The notes beneath the pieces were generated by a model. The model was not told where the DNA came from. It saw only the letters and a list, made by a program, of their open reading frames with translations, and made no database searches. 64,000 nucleotides of DNA from an uncultured bacterium (GTDB lineage Bacteria; Hydrothermota; Hydrothermia; B15-G9; WFZT01), in assembly GCA_964571845.1 (NCBI GenBank), contig CAZNDM010000087.1, positions 16,376 through 80,375 on the forward strand, read 5' to 3'. Both the position numbers and the translations under genes were made by a program. Of this stretch, positions 23,249 through 36,359 are shown in pieces. Within the stretch, counting starts at the first letter, position 1, and each line of letters opens with the position of its first letter.

Positions 23249-23696
23249 TTTTGTACTCAACGGAAAATCCGTAGAACTCGATTCCAGGCCCGACGCCAGA
23301 TTACTTGACATTTTGAGAGAAAAACTCGGGATAAAAAGTGTCAAAGAGGGGTGCGGAGAGGGCGAATGTGGTGCATGCGCGGTTATTCTCGATGGAAAAG
23401 TTGTCAATTCCTGCCTCGTCCCGGCAGTTGCAGTACACGGAAGCAGGATCACAACCCTTGAGGGCATCCTTGAAACCCCGGAGAACATGAGAATAAAAAG
23501 AGCCCTCGAAGAAGCGGGAGCTGTCCAGTGCGGATTCTGCACCCCCGGGATAGTTCTTGCAATATATACCTACTTGAAAAATGGGGGCACAGCAGATGAC
23601 ACTTCCATAAGGAAATACCTTGCCGGTAATCTTTGCAGATGCACAGGCTACAACATGATCATAGAAGCTGTGAAACTTGCCATTGAAAAGGGCTGA
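23238..23696 (+). CDS. (2Fe-2S)-binding small subunit of the xanthine dehydrogenase family (CoxS-like)
   Basis: 152 aa. Plant-ferredoxin-like CGEGECGAC cluster and a second CGFCTPG...CRCTGY cluster. Confidence 0.85.
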   Translation: MKINFVLNGKSVELDSRPDARLLDILREKLGIKSVKEGCGEGECGACAVILDGKVVNSCLVPAVAVHGSRITTLEGILETPENMRIKRALEEAGAVQCGFCTPGIVLAIYTYLKNGGTADDTSIRKYLAGNLCRCTGYNMIIEAVKLAIEKG

Positions 23697-23705
23697 TTGT
23701 ACTTT

Positions 23706-25103
23706 TCAGCTAATCTGACGGTTCAATTTTATCCATTCGATCGCCTTCTCTATCCTCCGGATACATTCATCCTTACCGATAACAGCCATCAGTTCAAAGA
23801 GTCCGGGACCAAAGGTCCTTCCTGTAACTGCGAGTCTTGTCGGATGTATCAACTTTGCTGCACTGATGCCGAGCTCCTCAGCAAGCGAGCGAACAGCACT
23901 CTCAATACTTTTTTCGTCAAAAGAATCGAGTTTTTTTAACCTCTCGACCAGCAAAGCCAATCTCTCTTCGACTCCCTCCTTAAAGTGCTTTCTCACACCC
24001 TTTTCGTCATACTTCTCGACATCCCTGAAAAAGTACTCTGAGAGCTCGACAAAGTCTTTGAGTAGCCTGACTCTTTCTTTCAGTAGTGGCACAACTTTTC
24101 TGAACTTTTCCCTGTCTCTGTCAGATTTTACCAGGCCCGCCTTTTCGACAAATGGCAGGGCGAGTTCATAAAGCTCCTCATCTGATTTCATCCTGATGTA
24201 TTCTGAATTTATCCAGTAGAGCTTATCAAGGTCAAAAACAGCCGCACGCTTGCCCACCCGCCTGAGATCAAAGAGCTTAATCATCTCTTCCTTTGACACA
24301 ATTTCCCTGTTTTCGCCCGGAGACCATCCAAGCAGAGCGAGAAAATTAAATAGCGCCTCCGGGAGAATCCCGATGTCGCGGTACTCAAGCACTGATGTGG
24401 CACCGTGACGCTTGGAAAGCCGTTTTTTGTCCGGTCCGAGGATCATGGGCAAGTGAGCGAACTCCGGAACATCCCAGCCAAACGCCCTGTAGATAAGAAT
24501 TTGCTTGGGTGTGTTGGATATGTGGTCTTCACCCCTTATGACATGGGTTATTCCCATGTAGTGGTCATCAACGACAACGGCAAAGTTGTAAGTTGGTATG
24601 CCATCAGATCTTACTATGACAAAATCCCCGATGTCTCTGTTGCGAAAACTTATGTGTCCTCTGATTATGTCGTCAAACTCTGTTGTCCCTTCATCCGGGA
24701 CGCGGAACTTTATGGCAAGAGGTTTGTCACTGTACTTTTCAGGATCAACTTCATAGCATTCCACGCCGCCACCCTCTTTCTCCAGTTCCTCTGGCGGTGT
24801 ATAGCAAAAATAGGCAAGTCCCTTATCAACAAGCTCCATCGCGTATTTTCTGTAAATCTCAAGTCTATCAAGCTGGTAAACTATATCCTCATCCCAGTTG
24901 AGACCGAGCCAGAGCATAGCCTCTTTGATGTACTCCTCCATCTCCTTGCTGGATCTTTTTACATCAGTGTTCTCAATCCTGAGCAGAAACTTTCCGCCTT
25001 TGTTGCGTGCAAAAAGCCAGTTATACAGGGCTGTCCTCGCACCACCGACATGCAAATATCCCGTTGGAGATGGTGCAAATCTTACACGAACTTCCTTTCC
25101 CAT
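23706..25103 (-). CDS. gltX: Glutamate--tRNA ligase
   Basis: Class I HIGH (FAPSPTGYLHVGGA) and KMSKS-type (KLSKR) motifs. The ATG at 25101-25103 is verified, with a GAGGAGG ribosome-binding site. The track start at 25118 is a TTG that overlaps the stop of the upstream kinase-helicase gene. Confidence 0.9.
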   Translation of the reverse strand: MGKEVRVRFAPSPTGYLHVGGARTALYNWLFARNKGGKFLLRIENTDVKRSSKEMEEYIKEAMLWLGLNWDEDIVYQLDRLEIYRKYAMELVDKGLAYFCYTPPEELEKEGGGVECYEVDPEKYSDKPLAIKFRVPDEGTTEFDDIIRGHISFRNRDIGDFVIVRSDGIPTYNFAVVVDDHYMGITHVIRGEDHISNTPKQILIYRAFGWDVPEFAHLPMILGPDKKRLSKRHGATSVLEYRDIGILPEALFNFLALLGWSPGENREIVSKEEMIKLFDLRRVGKRAAVFDLDKLYWINSEYIRMKSDEELYELALPFVEKAGLVKSDRDREKFRKVVPLLKERVRLLKDFVELSEYFFRDVEKYDEKGVRKHFKEGVEERLALLVERLKKLDSFDEKSIESAVRSLAEELGISAAKLIHPTRLAVTGRTFGPGLFELMAVIGKDECIRRIEKAIEWIKLNRQIS

Positions 25104-25114
25104 TTTTGTCCTCC

Positions 25115-27805
25115 TCAAGTGTTTCTCTCTTCTCTTACATACATTTCGTAAAGGAACCTTGAAGGCTCCTGATAGTACCTGAATCTCTTCTTGGGGTAAG
25201 TAAGGTAAAGGGTCTCAGAAGCCCTTGTCAAAGCCACATAGCATAGTCTCCTCTCTTCTTCAAGTCCTGATTTTTCAGCGACTGATCTGAAGAGCGGAAA
25301 AACTCCCTCCACGAGTCCCACAAGGAACACGACCGGGAATTCAAGACCTTTTGCCTGGTGGATTGTGATAATCTGGACGCCTCCGACTGACCGGAATTCC
25401 TCTCCAAGATGCTGCATCATCGCCACATGACTCAAAAATTCCCTTACTTCGCCTTTTTTAAAAGATCCTGCAATACCAAGAAGCTCGTTTATGTTGTCCT
25501 TCTCCACGAGTCTCGACGGAGTGTCCTTCTCTTCAAGATACTTCATGTAACCCGTAACATCATAAACTTCCTCAAGGAGCTCCTGTGGAGAGCGCACCCT
25601 CAACTGTTCCGGTGTAAAAGAATTGAGATACTCCCAGAATCTCTCAAGAGTTTTGAGCTGTTCCTCTGTAAACTTCTTTGAAAATGTGGGTTTCCCGGTC
25701 TTTGAAAAATACCTGACAGCCGTTTTTGCGTCCTTCGGATGCCATCTGAGGAATTTTATCAACATACTCTGCAGATCAGAGGCGGACCCTTTGCCTGTGA
25801 GGAATTTTAAAAAGCCAATTGAAGCCTTTATCTCTTCCCTCTCATAAAAGCCGCCGATACCAAGAACATTAAACGGAATTTTCTTTTTGCTAAAAACTTC
25901 CTCAAACGGGCGCGAAAGTGAGTTTAATCGGATAAGCACAGCAATGTCATCAAAGCTCCTCCCCCTTTCCCGCTCTTCGAGGATCTTCTCGGCAACAAAC
26001 TCCGCCTCGTCTATCTCATTTCTTGCAGCGTAAAACTTTATGGACTCCTGTCCGGACTCCCTGAGGGGTATTACAAGCTTGTCTATGCGGTCCTCATTAT
26101 GAGAAATTAAAGTATTTGCCACATTCAGGATCTCATCCGGGGAGCGGAAGTTCTGGGTCAACCTTACTTCTCTATGATCTGGATAATACTTCCTGAAATC
26201 CATGAGGAATTTACTCGACGCTCCCCGAAATCCGTAGATCGATTGATCGTCGTCACCTGTAACAAACAGGTTTTTATGCCTTGAAGATAGTATCTGCATC
26301 AGCACAAATTGTCCCCTATTTATGTCCTGAAATTCGTCAACGAGGATGTACCGGAATCTCTCGCTAAAAAGCTCTTTGATGTCATCGTACTGCCTCAGAA
26401 GTCTCACTGACAGAAAGATAAGATCATCGAGATCGATAAAACCGTTAAAGAAGAGTTCTTTCTGGTACTTTTCATAGGCTTCAGCGACTTCCCGTCGCCA
26501 CTTGTGTTTCACATGTTCGAGCAAGTATTCCGGAGAAATGAGGTTCCCCTTGTATCTCGAAATTTCTCTCAAAATGGCACGAGCCTTTTCTTTTGACCTT
26601 ATACCCGTTGCCTTTTCAAAAAGCTCTTCCTGAGCATCCCGGGTTATGAGCTGGAATTCCGGTGGGTATCCCAGCCTTTCGATACCGTATGAGACTATTT
26701 TTCGCCCGAGATAATGGAATGTCCCCGTCCACAAATTTTTTGTGTTTCCCTCACCAATCAATTTTTCCACTCTGTCTTTCATTTCACCTGCAGCTTTACC
26801 TGTAAAGGTTACGGCAAGGATGTTTTCCGGTGGCACACCTTTCTCGTGGATCAGGTAGGCAATCCTGTGGACAAGTGTGGTCGTCTTACCTGTCCCCGCT
26901 CCACCGATGAGGAGAAAGTAACCGTCCCCGTTGACAACAGCTTCCCGCTGTTCTTCTGTGAGACCTTCGAGAATAGGTGAGGACTTTTTTCTGACATGGA
27001 CTGTCTTCAGTGAAAGCTCACCCCCGCCTTTTCGGACATAATCCTGCAATGCCTGCTTCATCTCTGAGGCAGTCCTGTATCTCTCTGAGGGCACCTTCCT
27101 CAAAGCTTTTTTTATTATCTCAAATAACTGGGGGGTCATCCTCGCGGGTTTTTTTAACTTCCCTTTGAATATCTGATTTCTCAAGTCCTCAATGGTTTCT
27201 GCGAAAAATGGAGGGTAGCCGGCAATAAGTTCGTAAAGAACGCAGGCAACGGACCAGATATCTGACTCTTTCCTCATCTTTCCACTCCAGGCTTCTGGTG
27301 CCATGTAGATAGGGGTACCTGCCATGGAGAAACTCAAACTGCTCGAGAGTATAACCGCAAGTCCAAAATCTGTGAGCTTTACCTCCCCGTCTTTTGTTAT
27401 CATTATGTTTTCGGGCTTTATATCCCTGTGAAGCACACCCCGCGAATGGGCATAGGATAAAGCTTCAAGAACATCGTTGATAATGGAAATTGCGCGGGTC
27501 TCATCAATTGGAGCCTCATTTTCAATCACATCTCTTAAGGACTGACCATCAACATACTCCATGACAATGGCAAGTTTACCTTCAATAAGCTCGGCAGTGT
27601 AAAATCTGACGATATTCGGGTGTTCAAGAGAGGCGAGGAGTTGAGCCTCTCTTTTGAGCATTTCTATGTCCCGCTCACGGGTTCTTGAGACCTTCAGTGC
27701 AAATTTTTTCTCCGTTATTGTGTCAAAAACGAGAAAAACATCGGCAAACTGCCCCCCTCCTATCCAGGATTCAACCCTGTATTTGCCGAGATTCTTTCTT
27801 ATCAT
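25115..27805 (-). CDS. Fusion protein: N-terminal Hanks-type Ser/Thr protein kinase domain and C-terminal UvrD/PcrA-like superfamily-1 DNA helicase
   Basis: 896 aa. Kinase motifs sit in residues about 1-265: glycine loop WIGGGQFADV, VAIK-like ALKV, HRDIKPEN, DFGLA and the APE loop GTPIYMAPE. Helicase motifs sit in residues about 285-896: Walker A GGAGTGKTTTL, motifs II-VI (LVDEFQD, FVTGDDDQSIY), and a UvrD C-terminus CYVALTRA. There is no transmembrane segment between the two domains. The ATG at 27803-27805 is verified. Confidence 0.8.
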   Translation of the reverse strand: MIRKNLGKYRVESWIGGGQFADVFLVFDTITEKKFALKVSRTRERDIEMLKREAQLLASLEHPNIVRFYTAELIEGKLAIVMEYVDGQSLRDVIENEAPIDETRAISIINDVLEALSYAHSRGVLHRDIKPENIMITKDGEVKLTDFGLAVILSSSLSFSMAGTPIYMAPEAWSGKMRKESDIWSVACVLYELIAGYPPFFAETIEDLRNQIFKGKLKKPARMTPQLFEIIKKALRKVPSERYRTASEMKQALQDYVRKGGGELSLKTVHVRKKSSPILEGLTEEQREAVVNGDGYFLLIGGAGTGKTTTLVHRIAYLIHEKGVPPENILAVTFTGKAAGEMKDRVEKLIGEGNTKNLWTGTFHYLGRKIVSYGIERLGYPPEFQLITRDAQEELFEKATGIRSKEKARAILREISRYKGNLISPEYLLEHVKHKWRREVAEAYEKYQKELFFNGFIDLDDLIFLSVRLLRQYDDIKELFSERFRYILVDEFQDINRGQFVLMQILSSRHKNLFVTGDDDQSIYGFRGASSKFLMDFRKYYPDHREVRLTQNFRSPDEILNVANTLISHNEDRIDKLVIPLRESGQESIKFYAARNEIDEAEFVAEKILEERERGRSFDDIAVLIRLNSLSRPFEEVFSKKKIPFNVLGIGGFYEREEIKASIGFLKFLTGKGSASDLQSMLIKFLRWHPKDAKTAVRYFSKTGKPTFSKKFTEEQLKTLERFWEYLNSFTPEQLRVRSPQELLEEVYDVTGYMKYLEEKDTPSRLVEKDNINELLGIAGSFKKGEVREFLSHVAMMQHLGEEFRSVGGVQIITIHQAKGLEFPVVFLVGLVEGVFPLFRSVAEKSGLEEERRLCYVALTRASETLYLTYPKKRFRYYQEPSRFLYEMYVREERNT

Positions 27806-27814
27806 GTGTTAAAA

Positions 27815-29839
27815 TTAATACTTCATCCTTTCTATGACAATCCAGGAATCCCGCTGACGCGCCATCCCCTCAACGATCTTTCTGAAGTCCTTGTAAAGTG
27901 ATTTGTCGTATATTCCTCCCTTCCTTCTGACCTCATCACTGTAATGAACAGTATCTTTCGAGGAGTAAACGAGTGATTTGAACTCCATAAACTTCACCTG
28001 TCCGGAAAAACCCTCGGGGATGTGTCTTACCCTGAATCCGGGAGGAAGCTTGATCACAATATCTTTGATACTCCTGTAGTTTCTTTCAAAAAATAGAGGA
28101 TTCAACCTGAATGTGGCTCCGACCTTCTCTGCCGTGTAGTCTGAAAGATCCGGCATCTTCAGGAGAATGAGGTTGTCTGCGACTATCGCGTATCCGGGAA
28201 CACGGTAAAAGAGAGTTAACTTCGGTGGTATCGTCAAATCTCCAAGGTCAGAAAGCCTGAAAGAGTCAAGTGTTATGCCAGGAGCCCAGTTGAGATTCTG
28301 CTCGAGTATCTTCTGTAGCTCAATTTTTCTGAATTTCTTGAGCGCCCTCACAGTAGCTTCGTCATAACCCCGAAACAGCACATTATCTTCAATAACAAGG
28401 TCCCCTGTTCTTGTAACAGCGATATTCATAAACTCAATCTGACCCTCTCTCTCCACCGGCGTGAAGGGGATATATGTTTCATCACCGTTGAGTGATATAC
28501 CATGTGTCCCCTGAAATTCGGGCCTTATGTAACCAAATGGCATTCTGTCATTGACAGGATCAAGATAAATTGTATCGAGCCTTACAACCATTCCTGTAAA
28601 CAGGGATAGGTTCCAGTTCTCAGGCAAAAACCAGGAGCTTTTTGAAACTGTTAGCACAAGGTCAGCCGGTATCCCGACTTTCCTGTAAAGTGAATATAGT
28701 AAGAACGCCTTATCAACTTCGCTTCCAGAAAATTTATTGAGAATAAGATCAGGGGATTTCGGGAAAATGCTGTAACTTTCACCATCAACAGGTATCCTCT
28801 TTATGTCCTGAGCAACGAATCTATAGATAGAAAACAGCGTGTCCTCACGACTCTGTGCCTTTGAGAGAAGGCCATCAAGAAGACTGTCGGGTTTAAAGCT
28901 GTCCACAAGGGAATCAATGTAGGTTCTCAGGCTATGGATATCCTCCCCGGTTTTCAACCCACATGTAAAGGCTGGAAGAATGTAGTAAAGAGGCGGCATG
29001 TAGGGTTCCTCAATATAACCTTTGTGATCCCTGACTATGAAAGAGTTTCCTTCACTCTCAATTCCCCCGGTGTTCCTCGCTGTGATAAGCAAAAGGTCTT
29101 TGTTCCCCTCAATTTCGAGCTTTTCATAGTATGTCGGCTCTCTGTCACCCATCAAAATCCTTCTCAATGGGGGATGTTTGGGGTCAAATTTACCGGTGAT
29201 TTTTATCTCGTAATCAAGCACATTTCCTGGTGAGCCTTCAGGAATGGCAAATTTTACCTGATGGAGATCATCATACTCAGGATATCTCGAAAAAACAGAT
29301 GCATCCTCAATGGCATTGTCCATAATGGAGACTACTCGATCGTCATGTGTTACTGTTCTTGCAAATACGATTTCTCCCCTTTCAAATGAGCTCATATACT
29401 TGAAGACTCTGTTTGCTGCTCTCTTACCCCGTTCCTTCAGAATCCTGATAATTCTCCTTTCCGTGTAAGAATAGGAACTATCAGTATTCAGCGTAAACTT
29501 CTTGATCACATAAACATTGACATATCCTGCCATGGGGTAAAGAGAGTCAACAGGAACTTTCAGGGCTTTAAGAAGCAAAGAATCGTCTATGTCGGAGATA
29601 TTTTCCCACATGTCACCGGGTCTTCTTCTGGACGACTCTATGCTCAAAACTTCTGTTCGTGCAACGGCGATTCTGCCGTGTGGAGTCGAGATATAAACAG
29701 AATCCTTTCCAATTTCCAGAACAGAACCGTTTATTTCCTCACCGTTTTTTAGATACACAATATCTCTTGTGAGATTCCGTGGCGCCTTTCCCATACCCCA
29801 TAGTGAAAACGCCGTTAAAAGGACAAGAAGGTATTTCAT
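27815..29839 (-). CDS. DUF3857/DUF3858-type transglutaminase-like secreted protein, catalytically dead paralog
   Basis: Signal peptide MKYLLVLLTAFSLWG. The ATG at 29837-29839 is verified, with a GGAGG ribosome-binding site; the track start at 29857 is a TTG. The region aligns with the active paralog, but the catalytic Cys is replaced (GSEVDKAFLLYSLYRKVGI versus GDCTDKSILFSTLLRSVGI) and the His is replaced (FTGMVVRLD versus FQGNHAITEI). Confidence 0.6.
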   Translation of the reverse strand: MKYLLVLLTAFSLWGMGKAPRNLTRDIVYLKNGEEINGSVLEIGKDSVYISTPHGRIAVARTEVLSIESSRRRPGDMWENISDIDDSLLLKALKVPVDSLYPMAGYVNVYVIKKFTLNTDSSYSYTERRIIRILKERGKRAANRVFKYMSSFERGEIVFARTVTHDDRVVSIMDNAIEDASVFSRYPEYDDLHQVKFAIPEGSPGNVLDYEIKITGKFDPKHPPLRRILMGDREPTYYEKLEIEGNKDLLLITARNTGGIESEGNSFIVRDHKGYIEEPYMPPLYYILPAFTCGLKTGEDIHSLRTYIDSLVDSFKPDSLLDGLLSKAQSREDTLFSIYRFVAQDIKRIPVDGESYSIFPKSPDLILNKFSGSEVDKAFLLYSLYRKVGIPADLVLTVSKSSWFLPENWNLSLFTGMVVRLDTIYLDPVNDRMPFGYIRPEFQGTHGISLNGDETYIPFTPVEREGQIEFMNIAVTRTGDLVIEDNVLFRGYDEATVRALKKFRKIELQKILEQNLNWAPGITLDSFRLSDLGDLTIPPKLTLFYRVPGYAIVADNLILLKMPDLSDYTAEKVGATFRLNPLFFERNYRSIKDIVIKLPPGFRVRHIPEGFSGQVKFMEFKSLVYSSKDTVHYSDEVRRKGGIYDKSLYKDFRKIVEGMARQRDSWIVIERMKY

Positions 29840-29840
29840 C

Positions 29841-31895
29841 TTATCTGCCTCCTTCAAAAATTACGGGTTTTCTCATGTGTTTCAAAAGTTTGAGCAGATC
29901 TTTTTTGTAAGTCTCATAATCTTCCAGCGGCACGATTCGATCCCATCTTCTGAAAACATCGTGAAATTCGATACTCTTTGCACCGTCACTTTTGAAGTAC
30001 GCAACATAAGAGAAGTGTTTATTTTTAATATCAATGGAATCTGGCAGGTATTTCAGCTTTAACTTTTCAAATTCGATGTAAAAATCGTGTGAGACTTTGT
30101 AAGATGTCCGATACACGATATCGTAGTGCCTGTCTTTGACAGTGATTTCGGGGAATCTGTACCTGTTTTTCAGATCAGGAAGCTCAAGAAGATAAAGGTC
30201 TCCAATGTTTTTTAAATATCCGGGAATTTCGAAAACTATCTTCAGGTAAAATTGTCTGGAAAGGTCGTACAGGGGTCCAAGCTCAAAGGAGATAAGCTTT
30301 GAGCCGGGTGCAGTCATCTGGATCATTTCTTCCATACGGTTTTTTCGTTCTTCTTCCTTCACATGTTGCCAGAACCACCGAACGCCAGCCTCAAAATCGC
30401 CCGTGTATTCACCGAGAAACTCGACTCTCGTGCTACCATCGGGTTTGATCTTCAACTTATATGTGTATTTTCTCCAGTTGTGTTCAGGTGGAGGTACCTT
30501 GATAAAGGAAATTTTCCTGAGCTGTGCATTGAGTGCCCAGACACCGTGATCAGCAGACCAGAAATAGGGATAACGGCTTGTTGAACCCGTGGCATCGAGA
30601 TAAAAATCCCTTCCATCTCTCGTAACAATCTCAGTAATGGCATGATTCCCCTGAAAAGACGGAACATCCACGAGGAAAGTTCCGGCATCGTTGGTCTCAA
30701 TGTAAACGGGGTAACCCATTATTCCAACAGAACGAAGCAGGGTTGAAAATAATATTGATTTATCCGTACAGTCCCCGTATCCCTTTTTCAGAGTCTCTGA
30801 TGCAGGGTGTCCGGAGACACCAGACGAGGCTCCACCTTTAATGGAAATGTAACGAATGTTCTGCTGGACCCAGTAGTATATCCTGGCTATGGAGTCGTCG
30901 AGGCTCGTCGCCCCTTTCACGATGCTGTCGGCAAGTGCTTTGATCTCAGGTGTAATGACCATCCTCTTCTTCTGGAATTTCGCATACCAATCGTAAAGAT
31001 AATCCCACGACTTCTGATTCGTAACAGCTAACATGGGGATAACATCAGGTAAAGGTGGCATAACAGGCTCATCAACCACTGGATCCACTGTATCCATTGA
31101 GAATTTGTAAAATTTGTAGGGACCGACCACTCTCTCCTCGTACTTCACACGGGAAGGATCAGTATTCCTGACGAGATATTTAAAAAACTCATTCTCCGGA
31201 AGTTTAAATGTTACCTCTGAATGAAGTACGGGTTTTTGCCCTCCGAAAAACCATCTTTCTGAAAAGACCTTTTTGTCCCAGGGATTGAAGATGTGATACT
31301 CGTAAACATACTCCACAATATCCCCGACCTCTGCGCCGGGAATAGAAAAACTCATGACCTTACTTTTGCCAAAAAATTCAAGTCCGGATTTGGGTTTTGT
31401 AATTTTAACATTTTTTGGATCGAGATAAATAACCCTGCCATCAGGTTTTATACATCTTGCAGCGAGAAGGCGTGCTTTTAGCATATCTTCATAAATGTAG
31501 ATTCTTACATCCGCCCAGTCTCTTGCGTCATCCTTCATTATGAGACCCTGGAAATGGTACCTATTGTACTGGGTAGAATCGGGCTCCATTGAGAAGAAAC
31601 CCTGATCAAGAAGCACGACACCACTGGCGTCAGGATACAGACGGCGAGCCTCTTTTGCCTTCTCAAGTACCTTTTCAGGAGACTCAAGTCTGTACTTAAC
31701 AGGGAGATACGCCCTCTCTTCGCCTTCAAAGATGATCTTTTTTACATCGAGACGGCTGACCACCGTGTCGTCCAGAATGTAGGCACCACCCTTCAGTTCA
31801 AGACGATGTGTCTTTATCACCCTTCCACCAAAAAGTTCGACCTTGTGGGCAAAAACCCACGAAAATAGTGCTATAGCAACTAAAAACTTCTTCAT
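29841..31895 (-). CDS. DUF3857/DUF3858-type transglutaminase-like secreted protein with an intact Cys-His-Asp triad
   Basis: 684 aa. Signal peptide MKKFLVAIALFSWVFA. Transglutaminase-like core GYGDCTDKSILFSTLLRSVGI...GNHAITEI...YLDAT. The ATG at 31893-31895 is verified, with a GGAGG ribosome-binding site. Confidence 0.65.
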   Translation of the reverse strand: MKKFLVAIALFSWVFAHKVELFGGRVIKTHRLELKGGAYILDDTVVSRLDVKKIIFEGEERAYLPVKYRLESPEKVLEKAKEARRLYPDASGVVLLDQGFFSMEPDSTQYNRYHFQGLIMKDDARDWADVRIYIYEDMLKARLLAARCIKPDGRVIYLDPKNVKITKPKSGLEFFGKSKVMSFSIPGAEVGDIVEYVYEYHIFNPWDKKVFSERWFFGGQKPVLHSEVTFKLPENEFFKYLVRNTDPSRVKYEERVVGPYKFYKFSMDTVDPVVDEPVMPPLPDVIPMLAVTNQKSWDYLYDWYAKFQKKRMVITPEIKALADSIVKGATSLDDSIARIYYWVQQNIRYISIKGGASSGVSGHPASETLKKGYGDCTDKSILFSTLLRSVGIMGYPVYIETNDAGTFLVDVPSFQGNHAITEIVTRDGRDFYLDATGSTSRYPYFWSADHGVWALNAQLRKISFIKVPPPEHNWRKYTYKLKIKPDGSTRVEFLGEYTGDFEAGVRWFWQHVKEEERKNRMEEMIQMTAPGSKLISFELGPLYDLSRQFYLKIVFEIPGYLKNIGDLYLLELPDLKNRYRFPEITVKDRHYDIVYRTSYKVSHDFYIEFEKLKLKYLPDSIDIKNKHFSYVAYFKSDGAKSIEFHDVFRRWDRIVPLEDYETYKKDLLKLLKHMRKPVIFEGGR

Positions 31896-31967
31896 TCTTG
31901 ATTAACCTCCGGGGAGTTTTTTGAAATTATAAATCGTGTACAGAATAATGTCCGCCAGAAAGGAGGA

Positions 31968-32402
31968 TTATTTTTTCAATGCCTCCTGTAGCTTTCTCTT
32001 CTGGATATCTATTAAGTCCTTCAGGGTATATCCTCTGAGAAAGGTCCGGATATTTTCTGCGAGCTCCTTCCAGACATCGTGAGGGGCACAGATTGGCACC
32101 TTATCACAGCTCGTTTCATCCTCGACGCACTCCACAAGACTGATCCTGCCTTCCACAGCCTCGACGATCTCAAGTAGCGTAATCTCTTCAGGCGATCTGG
32201 CGAGCATGAAACCACCGCCTCTTCCCTTTGCACTATCCAGGATCCCTGCTCTCTTCAGTTGAAGAAAAAGATTCTCGAGATACCTCTCGGACAGCCCTTC
32301 TCGCTCGGCGATCTCTCTGATAAAAATCGGTCTTCCATCTATATTCATTGCAAGGTCAAGTATTGCCCTTACTGCATATCTGGATCTTGTTAGCAGTCTC
32401 AT
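31968..32402 (-). CDS. Rrf2-family (IscR-like) transcriptional regulator with three cluster-ligand cysteines
   Basis: 144 aa. The wHTH GLSERYLENLFLQLKRAGIL and the CVEDETSCDKVPIC Cys triad. Its ATG overlaps the stop of the aminotransferase gene as ATGA, verified. Confidence 0.8.
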   Translation of the reverse strand: MRLLTRSRYAVRAILDLAMNIDGRPIFIREIAEREGLSERYLENLFLQLKRAGILDSAKGRGGGFMLARSPEEITLLEIVEAVEGRISLVECVEDETSCDKVPICAPHDVWKELAENIRTFLRGYTLKDLIDIQKRKLQEALKK

Positions 32403-33562
32403 TTTCTCTCCTCAAGATATTTTTTAATCCTCTCCAACGCCTCCTCGATATTTTCGAGGGAATTGGCATAGGAGAACCTTATATAATGATTTGTCCTGTT
32501 GGAGCCAAAGTCAACTCCCGGTGTTACCGCAACGCCTGCATTATCGAGGATCTCATGGGCAAATTTAAATGAGTCGTCGGAAAATCTCGAAATATTGGCA
32601 AAAACATAGAACGCACCTGCAGGTGTGGATTTTATACCAAAACCAAGCTTTCTGAGCCCTTCAACCATAACTCTCCTTCTACGATCGTACTCTCTCCTCA
32701 TGCTCTCGACAAAGCTCCAGCTCTCCTCAAAGGCATACAGGGCAGCATACTGGGCAATTGAGCTTGGACAGATAAAGAGATTCTGAGCGAGTTTGTGAAC
32801 CGTGCTGAGCAAACTTTCCGGTACTATCATCCATCCGAGTCTCCACCCTGTCATGGCAAAGAGCTTTGAAAATCCGTTTATCACGATCACATCATCTGAA
32901 AACTCGAGAGCTGTGTGCTCCTTTCCTTCATAAACGAGGCCATGATAAATCTCATCTGAGATGAAGAAAGGTGTTATTTCGATAGCCTCTCTTATCTTAT
33001 CACCGGCTGTCAATGTACCAGTTGGATTCGCAGGTGAGGCGATCAACAGTGCTTTGGTCCGTTCCGTTTTCCTCTTTTTAACCTCCTCAATTGAGATTTC
33101 AAAATTCTCTTCCTCGAAAACGGGCACAAAAACGGGCCTGGCATCAAATGCCCTTGCAAAGTTGGGGTAACAGGGATAACCGGGATCTGTAAAAATGATC
33201 TCGTCACCGATGTCCATTATTGCTGCCATGATCAGGATAAATGCTCCGGATGTACCATTGGTTACAACAACCCTTTCAGGTGATATCTCTATGCCGTAGT
33301 AAAAATTGTAGAATTCGGCTATTTTTTCACGCAATTCAGGGATACCGAGACTGGGTGTGTAGTGTGTCCTGCCTTCCTTTATCGCCCTGATTCCAGCCTC
33401 TCTTATCGGTTCAGGTGTATCAAAATCCGGTTCACCTATTTCGAGATGTATGATACTTCTACCCTGCCTTTCGAGACGATGAGCCTTTTCAAGGATCTCC
33501 ATTACAATGAAGGAGGTAATTTCTTTATTTCTTGTAGCAATCAGGCTTTTTTGAAAATCCAT
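32399..33562 (-). CDS. PLP-dependent class I/II aminotransferase (aspartate aminotransferase family)
   Basis: 387 aa. Motifs NPTGT and SKLFAMTGWRLGW with the PLP lysine. The ATG at 33560-33562 is verified. Confidence 0.8.
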   Translation of the reverse strand: MDFQKSLIATRNKEITSFIVMEILEKAHRLERQGRSIIHLEIGEPDFDTPEPIREAGIRAIKEGRTHYTPSLGIPELREKIAEFYNFYYGIEISPERVVVTNGTSGAFILIMAAIMDIGDEIIFTDPGYPCYPNFARAFDARPVFVPVFEEENFEISIEEVKKRKTERTKALLIASPANPTGTLTAGDKIREAIEITPFFISDEIYHGLVYEGKEHTALEFSDDVIVINGFSKLFAMTGWRLGWMIVPESLLSTVHKLAQNLFICPSSIAQYAALYAFEESWSFVESMRREYDRRRRVMVEGLRKLGFGIKSTPAGAFYVFANISRFSDDSFKFAHEILDNAGVAVTPGVDFGSNRTNHYIRFSYANSLENIEEALERIKKYLEERK

Positions 33563-33611
33563 ATCCGCTCCCTTAAACTTTCCAAAATTTTTTGAAAAGG
33601 AGGTTTTTGAT

Positions 33612-36359
33612 ATGATAAAGTATCTGATCTTTCTTTTTCTATCGTTAAATCAGGGGGGTACTCTTGGCCTATATTACCCATCGATATCCCCTGATGGCAC
33701 AAAAATAGCATTCTCATTCAGGGGGGACATCTGGGTTTATGATACAGTAGAAAAGCAGGTCCAGCGAGTAACCCTGCACGAGGCAACGGACACGAGACCT
33801 GTATGGTCACCAGATGGCAGGGAAATCGCTTTTGCATCAATGAGAAGTGGCAACTATGACATCTGGATCGTTCCAGCAAACGGGGGCACTCCAAGAAGGA
33901 TTACTTTTAACCCCTCAACTGACATTCCAACAGACTGGAAAGGCGACACCATCCTTTTTTATTCCTACAGAAACAGGAGATTTTACACAATTTTCAAAAT
34001 ACACAAAGATGGGGGAATGCCCCTCAGTGTTACAAACTTCGACTCACATAGTGGTGTATTTGCACCAGATGGATCCATTTACTTTGTAAAAAACGGTGTC
34101 TCGTATTTCCGAAAAGGCTACAAAGGCTCGGCAAATGGCGAAATTTTCCGCCTGAAGAATAACAAATTTGAAAGAATTACAAACTATGAGGGAACTGATA
34201 GGGACCCTGCCGTTGATGCAAGTGGAAACCTGTATTTTATATCTGAAAGAGACAGTGGACTGCAAATCTACAGATTTGACGGTACACCTGTTAGAATTTC
34301 ACACCTCGATAGGGGAGACGCCCTTCATCTCGCAGTTTCGAAAGATGGAAAGTATGCCGTAATTGAACATAAACTCACACTTTACAGAGTTGACCTCAAA
34401 ACCGGTGAGGCAAAGCCTCTTGGTATAAACATCCAGACTGACAATAAACTTCCAGAAGAGTTTACAAGGGAATTTACAGATGTCGTAGAGTCTCCTTCCA
34501 TGTCTCCTGATGGCAAATGGATAGCCTTTGCTATGAGAGGGGACATCTGGATAGTCTCTTCGAATGGTGGAGAGGCGAGAAAGATCACAGATGACACTTT
34601 CGAGGATGCATGGCCCCGCTTCTCACCTGACGGCAAAAAGATCGCTTTCTATTCGAACAGGGAAGGCAACAACGACATTTTTATCGTACCTGTTGAAGGC
34701 GGGGAACCGAAAAGGATCACAAAAGACAAGGCTGATGACTTCTTCGAAAGCTGGTCCCCCGATGGCCAGTACATCGTATTTACCTCCACGAGAAAAGGTA
34801 ACAAAGACATTTTTGTCATCCGACTCAAAGATCACAAAGTCTTCCAGATAACAAAGCACGAGAAAGCAGACGACGATCCGGTCTTCTCCCCTGATGGAAG
34901 ATGGATATACTTTGATTCGCAGAGAAGTGGTAACGGCGAGATATACCGAATTCGTGTAAAGGACGGAAAACCTGTAGGGGAACCCGAAAGGCTGACACAT
35001 GGGCCGGGTTACAAACAGATCCCCACGCTCTCACCGGATGGGAAACTCGTTGCCTACGAAGTCTCATCTCGCCAGTCACCACCTAAAATTTTTGTCATGG
35101 ATGCCGATGGAAATCAGCATATCCAGCTAACTGAAGGGAGAACACCGAGCTGGGCAGGTGATTACATCGTATTCACAAATCGAGGTAAACTTCAGAAGAT
35201 CCGGGCACCCAGAGAGCTGATCTTACCTGAAACAGTTGAGTTTACTGCAAAAGAAGTCGTCAAAAGACATGAGGACTTCAAGAAGATCTTCGATATGGCA
35301 TGGTTGAAACTGAAAACGCGTTTTTACGACTCAACGATGCACGGAATAGACTGGGAATCAGTCAAAGAGTACTACCGCCCCCTGCTCGATTATGCAGAAA
35401 CATACGGCGAGTTGAGAAAAGCTATTCTCTTTATGATGGGCGAGCTCAGGGCATCCCATATCGGGATCCAACCACCAAGAAAAGAGAGAAAAATTAAAGC
35501 CTTCACCGGATTTGAGATCGAAATCACAGAAAATGGGGCAAGAGTAACAAAAGTTTACAAAAATTCACCAGCAGAAAAGGCTGGACTGAAACCCGGTGAC
35601 ATTATCGTAAGTATTGACACTTTCAGCACAAAAGACCCCCACTTCAATCTTTACAGAGTTGTCTATCAGAAAGACAGCATAAAAATCAGTACAGTAGATG
35701 AGGAAACCCTCACAATAAAGGTTTTACCATGGGATACTTTGAGGACATTCGTATGGGAGGAATGGGAGGAGAAAAACAGAGAAATTGTTGACAAAGCCAC
35801 AGATGGAAAGGTGGCATACCACCACATAAGGGCGATGAACGAAGATGAGCTTGCACGATTCAAAAAAGCGATTATGAGATTCCTGAAGGAGGGAAAAGAA
35901 GGTCTCATACTCGATGTGAGATACAATCCTGGAGGCAGAATCCACGAGGCACTGCTGGATATTTTAACAAAGAAAGCTTATGCAAAATTTGTTCGCCGCG
36001 GACAAAAACCCCAGATCCAGCCGTCATTGAGATGGGGAAAACCTCTTGTGGTGCTCATCAACGAATTTTCATTCTCGGATGCAGAGATTTTCCCCGCTGC
36101 TGTTAAATATCTCGGTATCGGTAAACTCGTGGGTGTACCAACGGGCGGCGGTGTGATTGGAACAGATCATGTAAAACTGCCTGACGGCTCCTCCCTCAAT
36201 GTGCCTTATGTGGGATGGTATCTACCAGATGGAACCAATCTCGAAGGCTACGGTGTTAAACCCGACTACTACATTGACAACGACCCCAACAATCCAGAAA
36301 AAGATCTTCAGCTCGAGAAGGCAATTGAAGTGATCCTTGAGGAGATCAAATCAGAATAG
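33612..36359 (+). CDS. Tricorn-protease-like peptidase: TolB/PD40 beta-propeller repeats, a PDZ domain and an S41 catalytic domain
   Basis: 915 aa. Signal peptide, then repeated PD40 motifs (SPDG.KIAF.S.R.GN.DI...). PDZ region KVYKNSPAEKAGLKPGDIIVSID. S41 region ILDVRYNPGG...LVVLINEFSFSDAEIFPAAVK. Confidence 0.7.
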   Translation: MIKYLIFLFLSLNQGGTLGLYYPSISPDGTKIAFSFRGDIWVYDTVEKQVQRVTLHEATDTRPVWSPDGREIAFASMRSGNYDIWIVPANGGTPRRITFNPSTDIPTDWKGDTILFYSYRNRRFYTIFKIHKDGGMPLSVTNFDSHSGVFAPDGSIYFVKNGVSYFRKGYKGSANGEIFRLKNNKFERITNYEGTDRDPAVDASGNLYFISERDSGLQIYRFDGTPVRISHLDRGDALHLAVSKDGKYAVIEHKLTLYRVDLKTGEAKPLGINIQTDNKLPEEFTREFTDVVESPSMSPDGKWIAFAMRGDIWIVSSNGGEARKITDDTFEDAWPRFSPDGKKIAFYSNREGNNDIFIVPVEGGEPKRITKDKADDFFESWSPDGQYIVFTSTRKGNKDIFVIRLKDHKVFQITKHEKADDDPVFSPDGRWIYFDSQRSGNGEIYRIRVKDGKPVGEPERLTHGPGYKQIPTLSPDGKLVAYEVSSRQSPPKIFVMDADGNQHIQLTEGRTPSWAGDYIVFTNRGKLQKIRAPRELILPETVEFTAKEVVKRHEDFKKIFDMAWLKLKTRFYDSTMHGIDWESVKEYYRPLLDYAETYGELRKAILFMMGELRASHIGIQPPRKERKIKAFTGFEIEITENGARVTKVYKNSPAEKAGLKPGDIIVSIDTFSTKDPHFNLYRVVYQKDSIKISTVDEETLTIKVLPWDTLRTFVWEEWEEKNREIVDKATDGKVAYHHIRAMNEDELARFKKAIMRFLKEGKEGLILDVRYNPGGRIHEALLDILTKKAYAKFVRRGQKPQIQPSLRWGKPLVVLINEFSFSDAEIFPAAVKYLGIGKLVGVPTGGGVIGTDHVKLPDGSSLNVPYVGWYLPDGTNLEGYGVKPDYYIDNDPNNPEKDLQLEKAIEVILEEIKSE

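Follow-up and report, generated by a model that had tools for sequence, protein, structure and literature searches.

The window, the whole 64,000 nt stretch of DNA that was analysed (contig CAZNDM010000087.1, from an uncultured bacterium of the Hydrothermota), carries on its minus strand two adjacent genes, here called A and B. Both encode secreted proteins with a DUF3857 domain and a transglutaminase-like core. Gene A specifies a predicted enzyme with a Cys-His-Asp triad (C/H/D), and gene B, directly downstream, almost certainly specifies a genuine pseudo-enzyme. The genes, their junction and a candidate promoter are as follows.

29841..31895, minus strand: gene A, 684 amino acids (aa); secreted protein with a DUF3857 domain, transglutaminase-like core and C-terminal domain; predicted catalytic paralog
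27815..29839, minus strand: gene B, 674 aa from an ATG start; secreted protein with an A-like three-domain fold and no catalytic Cys or His; predicted pseudo-enzyme
29837..29855, minus strand: A/B junction; Shine-Dalgarno sequence GAAGGAGG (29855-29848) within the 3′ end of A, TAA stop of A (29843-29841), one base, ATG of B (29839-29837)
31926..31954, minus strand: promoter-like site, CGGACA-17 nt-TATAAT, in the 72 nt gap between an Rrf2 gene and A; candidate promoter for A and B

The program-made list of open reading frames (ORFs) starts gene B at a TTG at 29857 (27815..29857, 680 aa). The true start is probably the ATG at 29839, which gives a protein of 674 aa identical to database protein P0001. 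This ATG lies 8 nt past the Shine-Dalgarno sequence and 1 nt past the TAA stop of A, a layout that suggests translational coupling of the two genes. As the ribosome-binding site of B sits within the end of A, both genes are probably expressed from one transcript. The promoter-like match upstream of A agrees with the consensus at 10 of 12 positions and is among the two best-scoring in the region 23500-33700, this being a match to the consensus alone and no proof of function.

Domains and catalytic residues of the two proteins

The proteins align over 591 residues with 23% identity (BLASTP, E 1e-20), far above chance, and share a predicted fold, which bears out their description in the initial annotation as tandem paralogs. 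That annotation had proposed comparison with three Pfam profiles. DUF3857 (PF12969; gathering score 24.6) was found in both proteins, with 72.2 bits (E 6.7e-20) in A and 46.3 bits (E 6e-12) in B. Transglut_core (PF01841; gathering score 23 bits) was found in A alone (46.7 bits, E 4.4e-12), the score of B being under the threshold (15.6 bits, E 0.02). DUF3858 (PF12970) gave no match for A or B at E ≤ 1. Despite its sub-threshold Pfam score, the core of B is shown by the A/B alignment and the shared fold to be homologous to the transglutaminase-like core. The codons of the catalytic residues of A and of their equivalents in B are listed below.

30768..30770, minus strand: Cys376 of A (GYGDCTDKS), predicted nucleophile
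30642..30644, minus strand: His418 of A (QGNHAITE), triad His; coordinates checked, family alignments
30594..30596, minus strand: Asp434 of A (FYLDATGS), triad Asp; coordinates checked, family alignments
28718..28720, minus strand: Glu374 of B (FSGSEVDKA), equivalent of the catalytic Cys
28592..28594, minus strand: Gly416 of B (LFTGMVVR), equivalent of the catalytic His in the family alignment
28559..28561, minus strand: Asp427 of B (IYLDPV), retained equivalent of the catalytic Asp

All of the motifs quoted in the initial annotation are present in A and B, and their coordinates were checked. The triad of A (Cys376-His418-Asp434) is in canonical order and is invariant in 30/30 and 88/88 relatives. 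The replacement of Cys by Glu in B, also given in the annotation, is the same in the BLASTP and the family MAFFT alignments. The annotated change from His to Val was off by a few columns, the His column of A aligning to Gly416 of B in family alignments or to a Ser in BLASTP. The conclusion drawn from it is left intact, because the aligned segment of B (PENWNLSLFTGMVVRLDTIYLDP) contains zero His and zero Cys. The statement that B keeps only the Asp is true of the window protein and does not hold family-wide, as the Asp survives in about half of the B-type proteins.

The absence of catalytic residues could also be apparent, if another Cys or His lined the pocket of B and the residues were displaced, not substituted. 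The single Cys of window B (C293) lies outside and before the core, and the only His residues of the core, H302 and H446, are conserved in 2/60 and 1/60 B-type sequences, respectively. In these 60 sequences Cys or His stays under 30% in every column of the B-family core, a measure of conservation, not of geometry. The absence of any conserved alternative residue argues for substitution.

The AF2 models of both proteins have high scores (A, pLDDT 89, pTM 0.82; B, pLDDT 93, pTM 0.88) and show the same order of domains: a small N-terminal beta-domain, a large beta-sandwich (DUF3857), an alpha/beta transglutaminase-like core and a C-terminal beta-rich domain. Their top match in the PDB is the same, 3kd4_A (A, E 6e-32; B, E 3e-30; TM 0.82 and 0.78 normalised to target). 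The Foldseek alignments to 3KD4 extend over 606 columns for A and 593 for B, and given this span the modelled C-terminal folds of A and B are probably equivalent to that of 3KD4. Weaker structural matches were found for the beta-sandwich of A (N-domains of M1 aminopeptidases and an OST subunit) and for its core (3ISR, transglutaminase 3 and PNGase, 2F4M). Neither protein had a useful PDB match when searched directly by sequence; 3KD4 was reached by profiles alone.

The N-terminal domain of B lies immediately after the signal sequence.

29635..29776, minus strand: small SH3-like beta-domain of mature B, approximately residues 22-68 (DIVYLKNGEEINGSV...); five beta-strands in the model

Its counterpart in A spans residues ~17-55, and in both proteins the domain has five or six strands and the motif hydrophobic-x-L-x-[ND]-G...G. 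It shows weak matches to NCBIfam Lepto_7_Nterm / LB_137, a Leptospira lipoprotein N-terminal domain (E ~5e-5 to 6e-5), and the B profile weakly matches a designed SH3 protein (7ur7, E 8e-4). NCBIfam holds no model that matches A, and for B these weak N-terminal-domain matches alone. A PADLOC search gave no match for A or B, so the pair is not linked to known defence systems.

Transglutaminase-like proteins (PF01841, clan CA) include the putative cysteine protease 3ISR of Cytophaga hutchinsonii, PNGase and the animal transglutaminases. Protein A shares with them the canonical Cys-His-Asp order, and differs in its additional DUF3857 and C-terminal domains and in an additional invariant stretch before the Cys. 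B has neither an above-threshold Pfam score nor the triad.

Conservation of the pair and constraint on B

The pair is not peculiar to this organism. A scan with the A profile, with one genome taken per species, gave 79 loci, and all of their ORFs were scored with the A and B profiles. The loci come from WOR-3, Hydrothermota, TA06, Cloacimonadota, Latescibacterota, Hydrogenedentota, Nitrospiraceae, Planctomycetota and others. Downstream DNA of at least 2 kb is available for 70 loci, and in 59 of these an A-type gene is followed by a B-type gene; four of the 59 (L001-L004) were obtained via B homologs and so are biased toward B. The reverse order (B then A) was never seen. The gap between the genes is mostly -4, -1 or +4 nt, and a tight junction is present in 58 related loci. 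Close homologs of B always lie directly downstream of an A-type gene, with varying flanking genes; in all-against-all clustering of the neighbours from 82 loci, any one family was shared by at most 7. The genes that flank the pair in the window (the Ser/Thr-kinase/UvrD-helicase fusion, GltX and Rrf2) were considered as parts of the unit and rejected, as these neighbours are not conserved.

The triad is present in all 88 A-type proteins and complete in none of the 59 B-type proteins. In the latter, the Cys position is occupied by S, E, I, N, D or L and the His position mostly by G or R; one B-type protein has the Cys and no His. The proposal of one active enzyme and one pseudo-enzyme is thus strongly supported, and is general to the family.

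A search of 1.84 billion representative proteins with the B profile returned 2207 matches below 1e-30, of which the best 150 were classified. The Cys is missing from 132 of their units, which have the sequence [GA]-N-x-[L/F]-D-K in common, and 19 C/H/D units are either N-terminal halves of fusions or members of a separate TPR-fused clade. Matches of 800-850 aa were considered as N-terminally extended B proteins and rejected; they belong to this separate clade, with TPR, DUF3857 and active transglutaminase domains. Its members (P0213, P0235, P0242, P0254, P0262, P0272, P0277 and P0279) have an N-terminal TPR array and the motif GDCKDQ/K, are catalytically intact, and score ~300-390 bits on the B profile.

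Four natural A-B fusions were found (P0137, 1366 aa; P0154, 1426 aa; P0169, 1402 aa; P0276, 1256 aa), in each of which a half with C/H/D precedes one that lacks the Cys. At the junctions of P0137, P0154 and P0169 the C-terminus of A passes into the mature N-terminal domain of B within ~5-15 residues. All three have lost the signal peptide of B, and for this reason they are regarded as true fusions, not as products of read-through. P0276 comes from another sub-clade (GVCRDKA), so fusion seems to have occurred independently at least twice. Such architectures favour a subunit or scaffold role for B over that of a free decoy.

Nearly all A and B proteins of the family carry signal sequences. In the window, hydrophobic N-terminal signal sequences were confirmed in both proteins, as had been annotated; those of A (…FSWVFA/HKVEL) and B (…AFSLWG/MGKAP) are plain signal peptides, with no lipobox Cys. 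Elsewhere a lipoprotein is predicted, by a crude lipobox rule and in counts that ignore phylogeny, for B in 19 pairs, for A in 9 and for both in 1 of 58. At most one lipoprotein per pair, the usual case, fits a complex needing one anchor. B as a general lipoprotein anchor was rejected for the window, where neither protein has a lipobox. The outer-membrane vesicle proteome of Tannerella forsythia includes a DUF3857 protein of 648 aa and a DUF3858 protein of 544 aa (PMC10682907); matched by size alone, these fit export of the A and B types of Bacteroidota.

In a neighbour-joining tree, all 59 B proteins form one exact clade with a long stem branch of 0.93, which indicates that the B type arose once, by an ancient duplication. 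The dN/dS comparison that the initial annotation had proposed was uninformative for A versus B and for most ortholog pairs, where dS is saturated (pS 0.77-0.89). It could be used for the one genome pair with unsaturated dS (L008 versus L009), which gave an omega of 0.053 for B and 0.040 for A. Since dS was saturated, constraint was otherwise gauged by dN ratios and per-domain identity. The ratio dN(B)/dN(A) was ~2 in the other 14 genome pairs.

Conservation is distributed differently over the two proteins. Over the 59 paired genomes, no domain of A is better conserved than its transglutaminase core (mean identity 0.54), while the core of B reaches 0.28, and the small N-terminal domain has a mean identity of 0.26 in A and 0.33 in B. 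The invariant residues of A cluster by the active site, from R348 to P443, and include a stretch before the Cys (R348, Y349, S351, K353, G354 ... G362, H363, A365, T368). Those of B are found mostly in the N-terminal and DUF3857 domains; R128, Y148, R161, Y189 and D209 are conserved in the latter. The B family also has its own signature, [GA]-N-x-[LF]-D-K, with D376 in 97% of sequences. By these measures B is functional and under purifying selection, not decaying. It is paralogous to a predicted active enzyme, has lost the catalytic residues and is maintained by selection, the features by which a pseudo-enzyme paralog is recognised.

That B might be a functionless, degenerating duplicate, a pseudogene in the making, has a negligible probability and is refuted by the conservation data. 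Its catalytic residues are missing, its Transglut_core score is sub-threshold and its evolution is about twice as rapid as that of A, all as would be seen in decay. Against this, 59 loci spread over many phyla carry it as an intact ORF of full length, its omega is 0.053, its model has a pLDDT of 93, and it belongs to an ancient monophyletic clade of which a relative (3KD4) has been crystallised.

The 3KD4 protein (BDI_1141 of Parabacteroides distasonis) is the only crystal structure of the family, a structural-genomics entry titled 'putative protease' that is behind the Pfam families DUF3857 and DUF3858. Its score is 120 bits with the B profile and 42 with the A profile; the Cys column is occupied by Pro (YGTPLEIA) and the Asp column by Ser, and the His is missing. 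From these scores and the missing triad residues, 3KD4 is assigned as a dead paralog of the B type. Its title looks like a mis-annotation, the nucleophile being absent from the sequence. Unlike A and B, to which it is ~13% identical, it is shorter (527 aa) and matches DUF3858 by sequence. The Bacteroidota B type, represented by 3KD4, is also without the N-terminal SH3-like domain.

The sequence of 3KD4 was rebuilt from the alignments and led to the full-length protein P0283 and to its contig. In this region (L084, 5029-8584) a gene for a 652-aa protein with DUF3857 and Transglut_core domains lies 13 nt upstream of BDI_1141 on the same strand. The 652-aa protein has the triad (CGVCKD, FNHCVA, PLDP). 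An upstream C/H/D gene next to the dead 3KD4 means that the A-then-B unit exists also in Parabacteroides distasonis.

Functional interpretation

The A-then-B adjacency has been kept across phyla with changing neighbours and, together with the fusions, argues for a joint function; A and B are very probably functionally coupled. It is also fairly probable, from the gene organisation and the fused forms, that they form a physical complex in which B is a non-catalytic partner subunit of A. The initial annotation had suggested a regulatory or scaffolding partner, or a substrate-binding decoy. Partnering of the two proteins is supported indirectly by gene order, coupling and fusions.

The pair would act as a self-contained two-gene unit, its proteins made together from one transcript and both exported via their signal peptides. 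We infer from these comparisons that the two proteins associate, what B does and where both reside: a hetero-complex of A and B would be located in the periplasm or on the cell surface. A would be an exported papain-clan Cys-His-Asp enzyme, with peptide or isopeptide hydrolysis, deamidation or cross-linking as its possible chemistry. Neighbour clustering of the 82 loci gave no hint of reaction type or substrate from genomic context. B might bind a substrate or ligand via its conserved DUF3857 and N-terminal SH3-like domains, might position or activate A, and could provide a membrane anchor in lineages where it is a lipoprotein.

Several points weigh against a fixed two-subunit complex. There is no B downstream of A in 11/70 loci, and in one genome a solo A exists alongside a pair (L042 and L048). 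From these loci it appears that some A-type enzymes work without an adjacent B. The WOR-3 metagenome-assembled genome contig JAFGSK010000028.1 (L044, 1351-11894) has the arrangement A-A-A-A-B, which misfits a simple 1:1 pairing; one dead partner may there serve several catalytic paralogs. Tight adjacency could partly reflect origin by tandem duplication, and the lipoprotein counts carry the limits given above. No functional study of DUF3857, DUF3858, 3KD4, BDI_1141, transglutaminase-like pseudoenzymes or WOR-3 with transglutaminase was found in the literature. To our knowledge, catalytic activity has been demonstrated for no DUF3857 transglutaminase-like protein, and no experiment has been reported on any member of the family.

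In the L044 array, all four A-type genes have the Cys-His-Asp triad and the single B-type gene is a lipoprotein gene. At another locus (L047) two tandem A-type genes reach the contig end.

A rather unlikely explanation is that B is not a stable subunit and acts as a free-standing binder, either a decoy or competitive inhibitor to which the substrate or product of A binds, or a protector of self-proteins against A. A substrate trap would have just what B has, namely the fold and conserved DUF3857 and N-terminal domains with no catalytic residues; co-transcription suits an enzyme and its antagonist equally, and solo A genes exist. However, the fusions tether the N-terminus of B to the C-terminus of A by ~5-15 residues, which is hard to reconcile with a free antagonist, and translational coupling suggests a matched stoichiometry. 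The cleft region of the transglutaminase core is also the least constrained part of B, which is unexpected if it grips the same substrate as A.

It is improbable that B has a different function of its own, either through a new catalytic site made up of other residues or in a purely structural or adhesive role in the envelope, with its adjacency to A reflecting nothing but shared regulation or history. The B-specific signature and the conserved residues of the DUF3857 domain could be read in this way, and a few B-type proteins (L003, P0197) have Ser, His and Asp at the three triad columns. Conservation does not back this reading: the Ser-His-Asp set turns up only in isolated sequences, most B-type proteins have Gly or Arg in the His column, about half have lost the Asp, and no Cys or His of the core is conserved. 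The adjacency of A and B across phyla and the fusions again speak for a joint function, and the preferred reading remains that of B as a non-catalytic partner subunit of A.

A wider proposal is possible, and is put forward tentatively. The DUF3857 transglutaminase-like enzymes of WOR-3, the other sampled phyla and the Bacteroidota (including human-gut Parabacteroides) would all be obligate heteromers, in which an ancient dead subunit gates the enzyme or targets it to a cell-envelope or extracellular protein. 3KD4 would then be the non-catalytic subunit of a family that has been mis-annotated for over a decade. If true, such heteromers would make up a new class among the exported cysteine enzymes.

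Heteromeric peptidases with an active and an inactive paralog are well established, and include mitochondrial processing peptidase (MPP) alpha/beta, the bacterial M16B pairs and TldD/TldE (PmbA). Their subunits are of similar size and are often encoded by adjacent genes in bacteria, and the dead subunit contributes to the substrate chamber. They differ from A-B in having unrelated folds and metalloprotease chemistry, and in that their complexes have been demonstrated experimentally, while that of A-B is a prediction. The concept of an enzyme with a dead-paralog subunit is therefore already established, and the A-B pairing adds a case, not a new principle.

A dead paralog that activates its enzyme by heteromerisation is described for the 'prozymes' of Trypanosoma brucei AdoMetDC and deoxyhypusine synthase (PMC5201418, PMC3663545). 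The prozymes resemble B as catalytically dead paralogs retained under selection. Their enzymes are cytosolic and eukaryotic, with a different fold, and their activation has been measured, whereas activation of A by B would be a prediction.

No paper on the A-B pairing, or on any function of DUF3857/DUF3858 proteins, was found in the literature. Uncultured candidate phyla and gut Bacteroidota commonly encode DUF3857 transglutaminase-like proteins, yet these are without an assigned function. For experimenters, the conservation of the pair means that A and B should be expressed together, that 3KD4 is the inactive partner and not a protease, and that the A-type gene carries the chemistry. The Parabacteroides pair provides a tractable model, and A-B as a whole adds a deep, multi-phylum bacterial case to the short list of enzymes dependent on a pseudo-enzyme paralog.

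Neighbouring genes and other observations

On the same strand as the pair, an aminotransferase gene and an Rrf2 regulator gene lie upstream of A, and a kinase-helicase gene followed by GltX lies downstream of B. The kinase-helicase gene (25115-27805, minus strand) encodes an 896-aa fusion of a Ser/Thr kinase and a UvrD/PcrA-type helicase; it begins 9 nt past the stop of B and overlaps the start of gltX. Its kinase half (Pkinase, 4e-60) has the HRD, DFG and APE motifs, and the helicase half is complete (UvrD-helicase, 4e-74; UvrD_C, 1e-57), with a Walker A motif (GGAGTGKT) and DEFQD. A gene of this kind is present after B in the five closest WOR-3 genomes only, and not in more distant ones. In PADLOC it shows generic similarity only, to GajB helicases and PD-T4-6/Mad6 kinases.

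In Parabacteroides, the pair sits after genes with Pfam domains resembling a menaquinone (men) set, and before a GH84/GH20-type N-acetylglucosaminidase gene. One metagenomic contig (L003, 1-2227) carries a tandem pair of the PmbA/TldD family a few kb from its A-B pair; this proximity is probably coincidence, because no other locus shows it.

On the plus strand of the window (33612-36359), a gene divergent from the aminotransferase/Rrf2/A/B block encodes a 915-aa secreted tricorn-like protease with PD40 beta-propeller repeats and Tricorn_C1, PDZ and Peptidase_S41 domains. The presence of this predicted protease suggests that the organism has a proteolytic repertoire in the periplasm or outside the cell.

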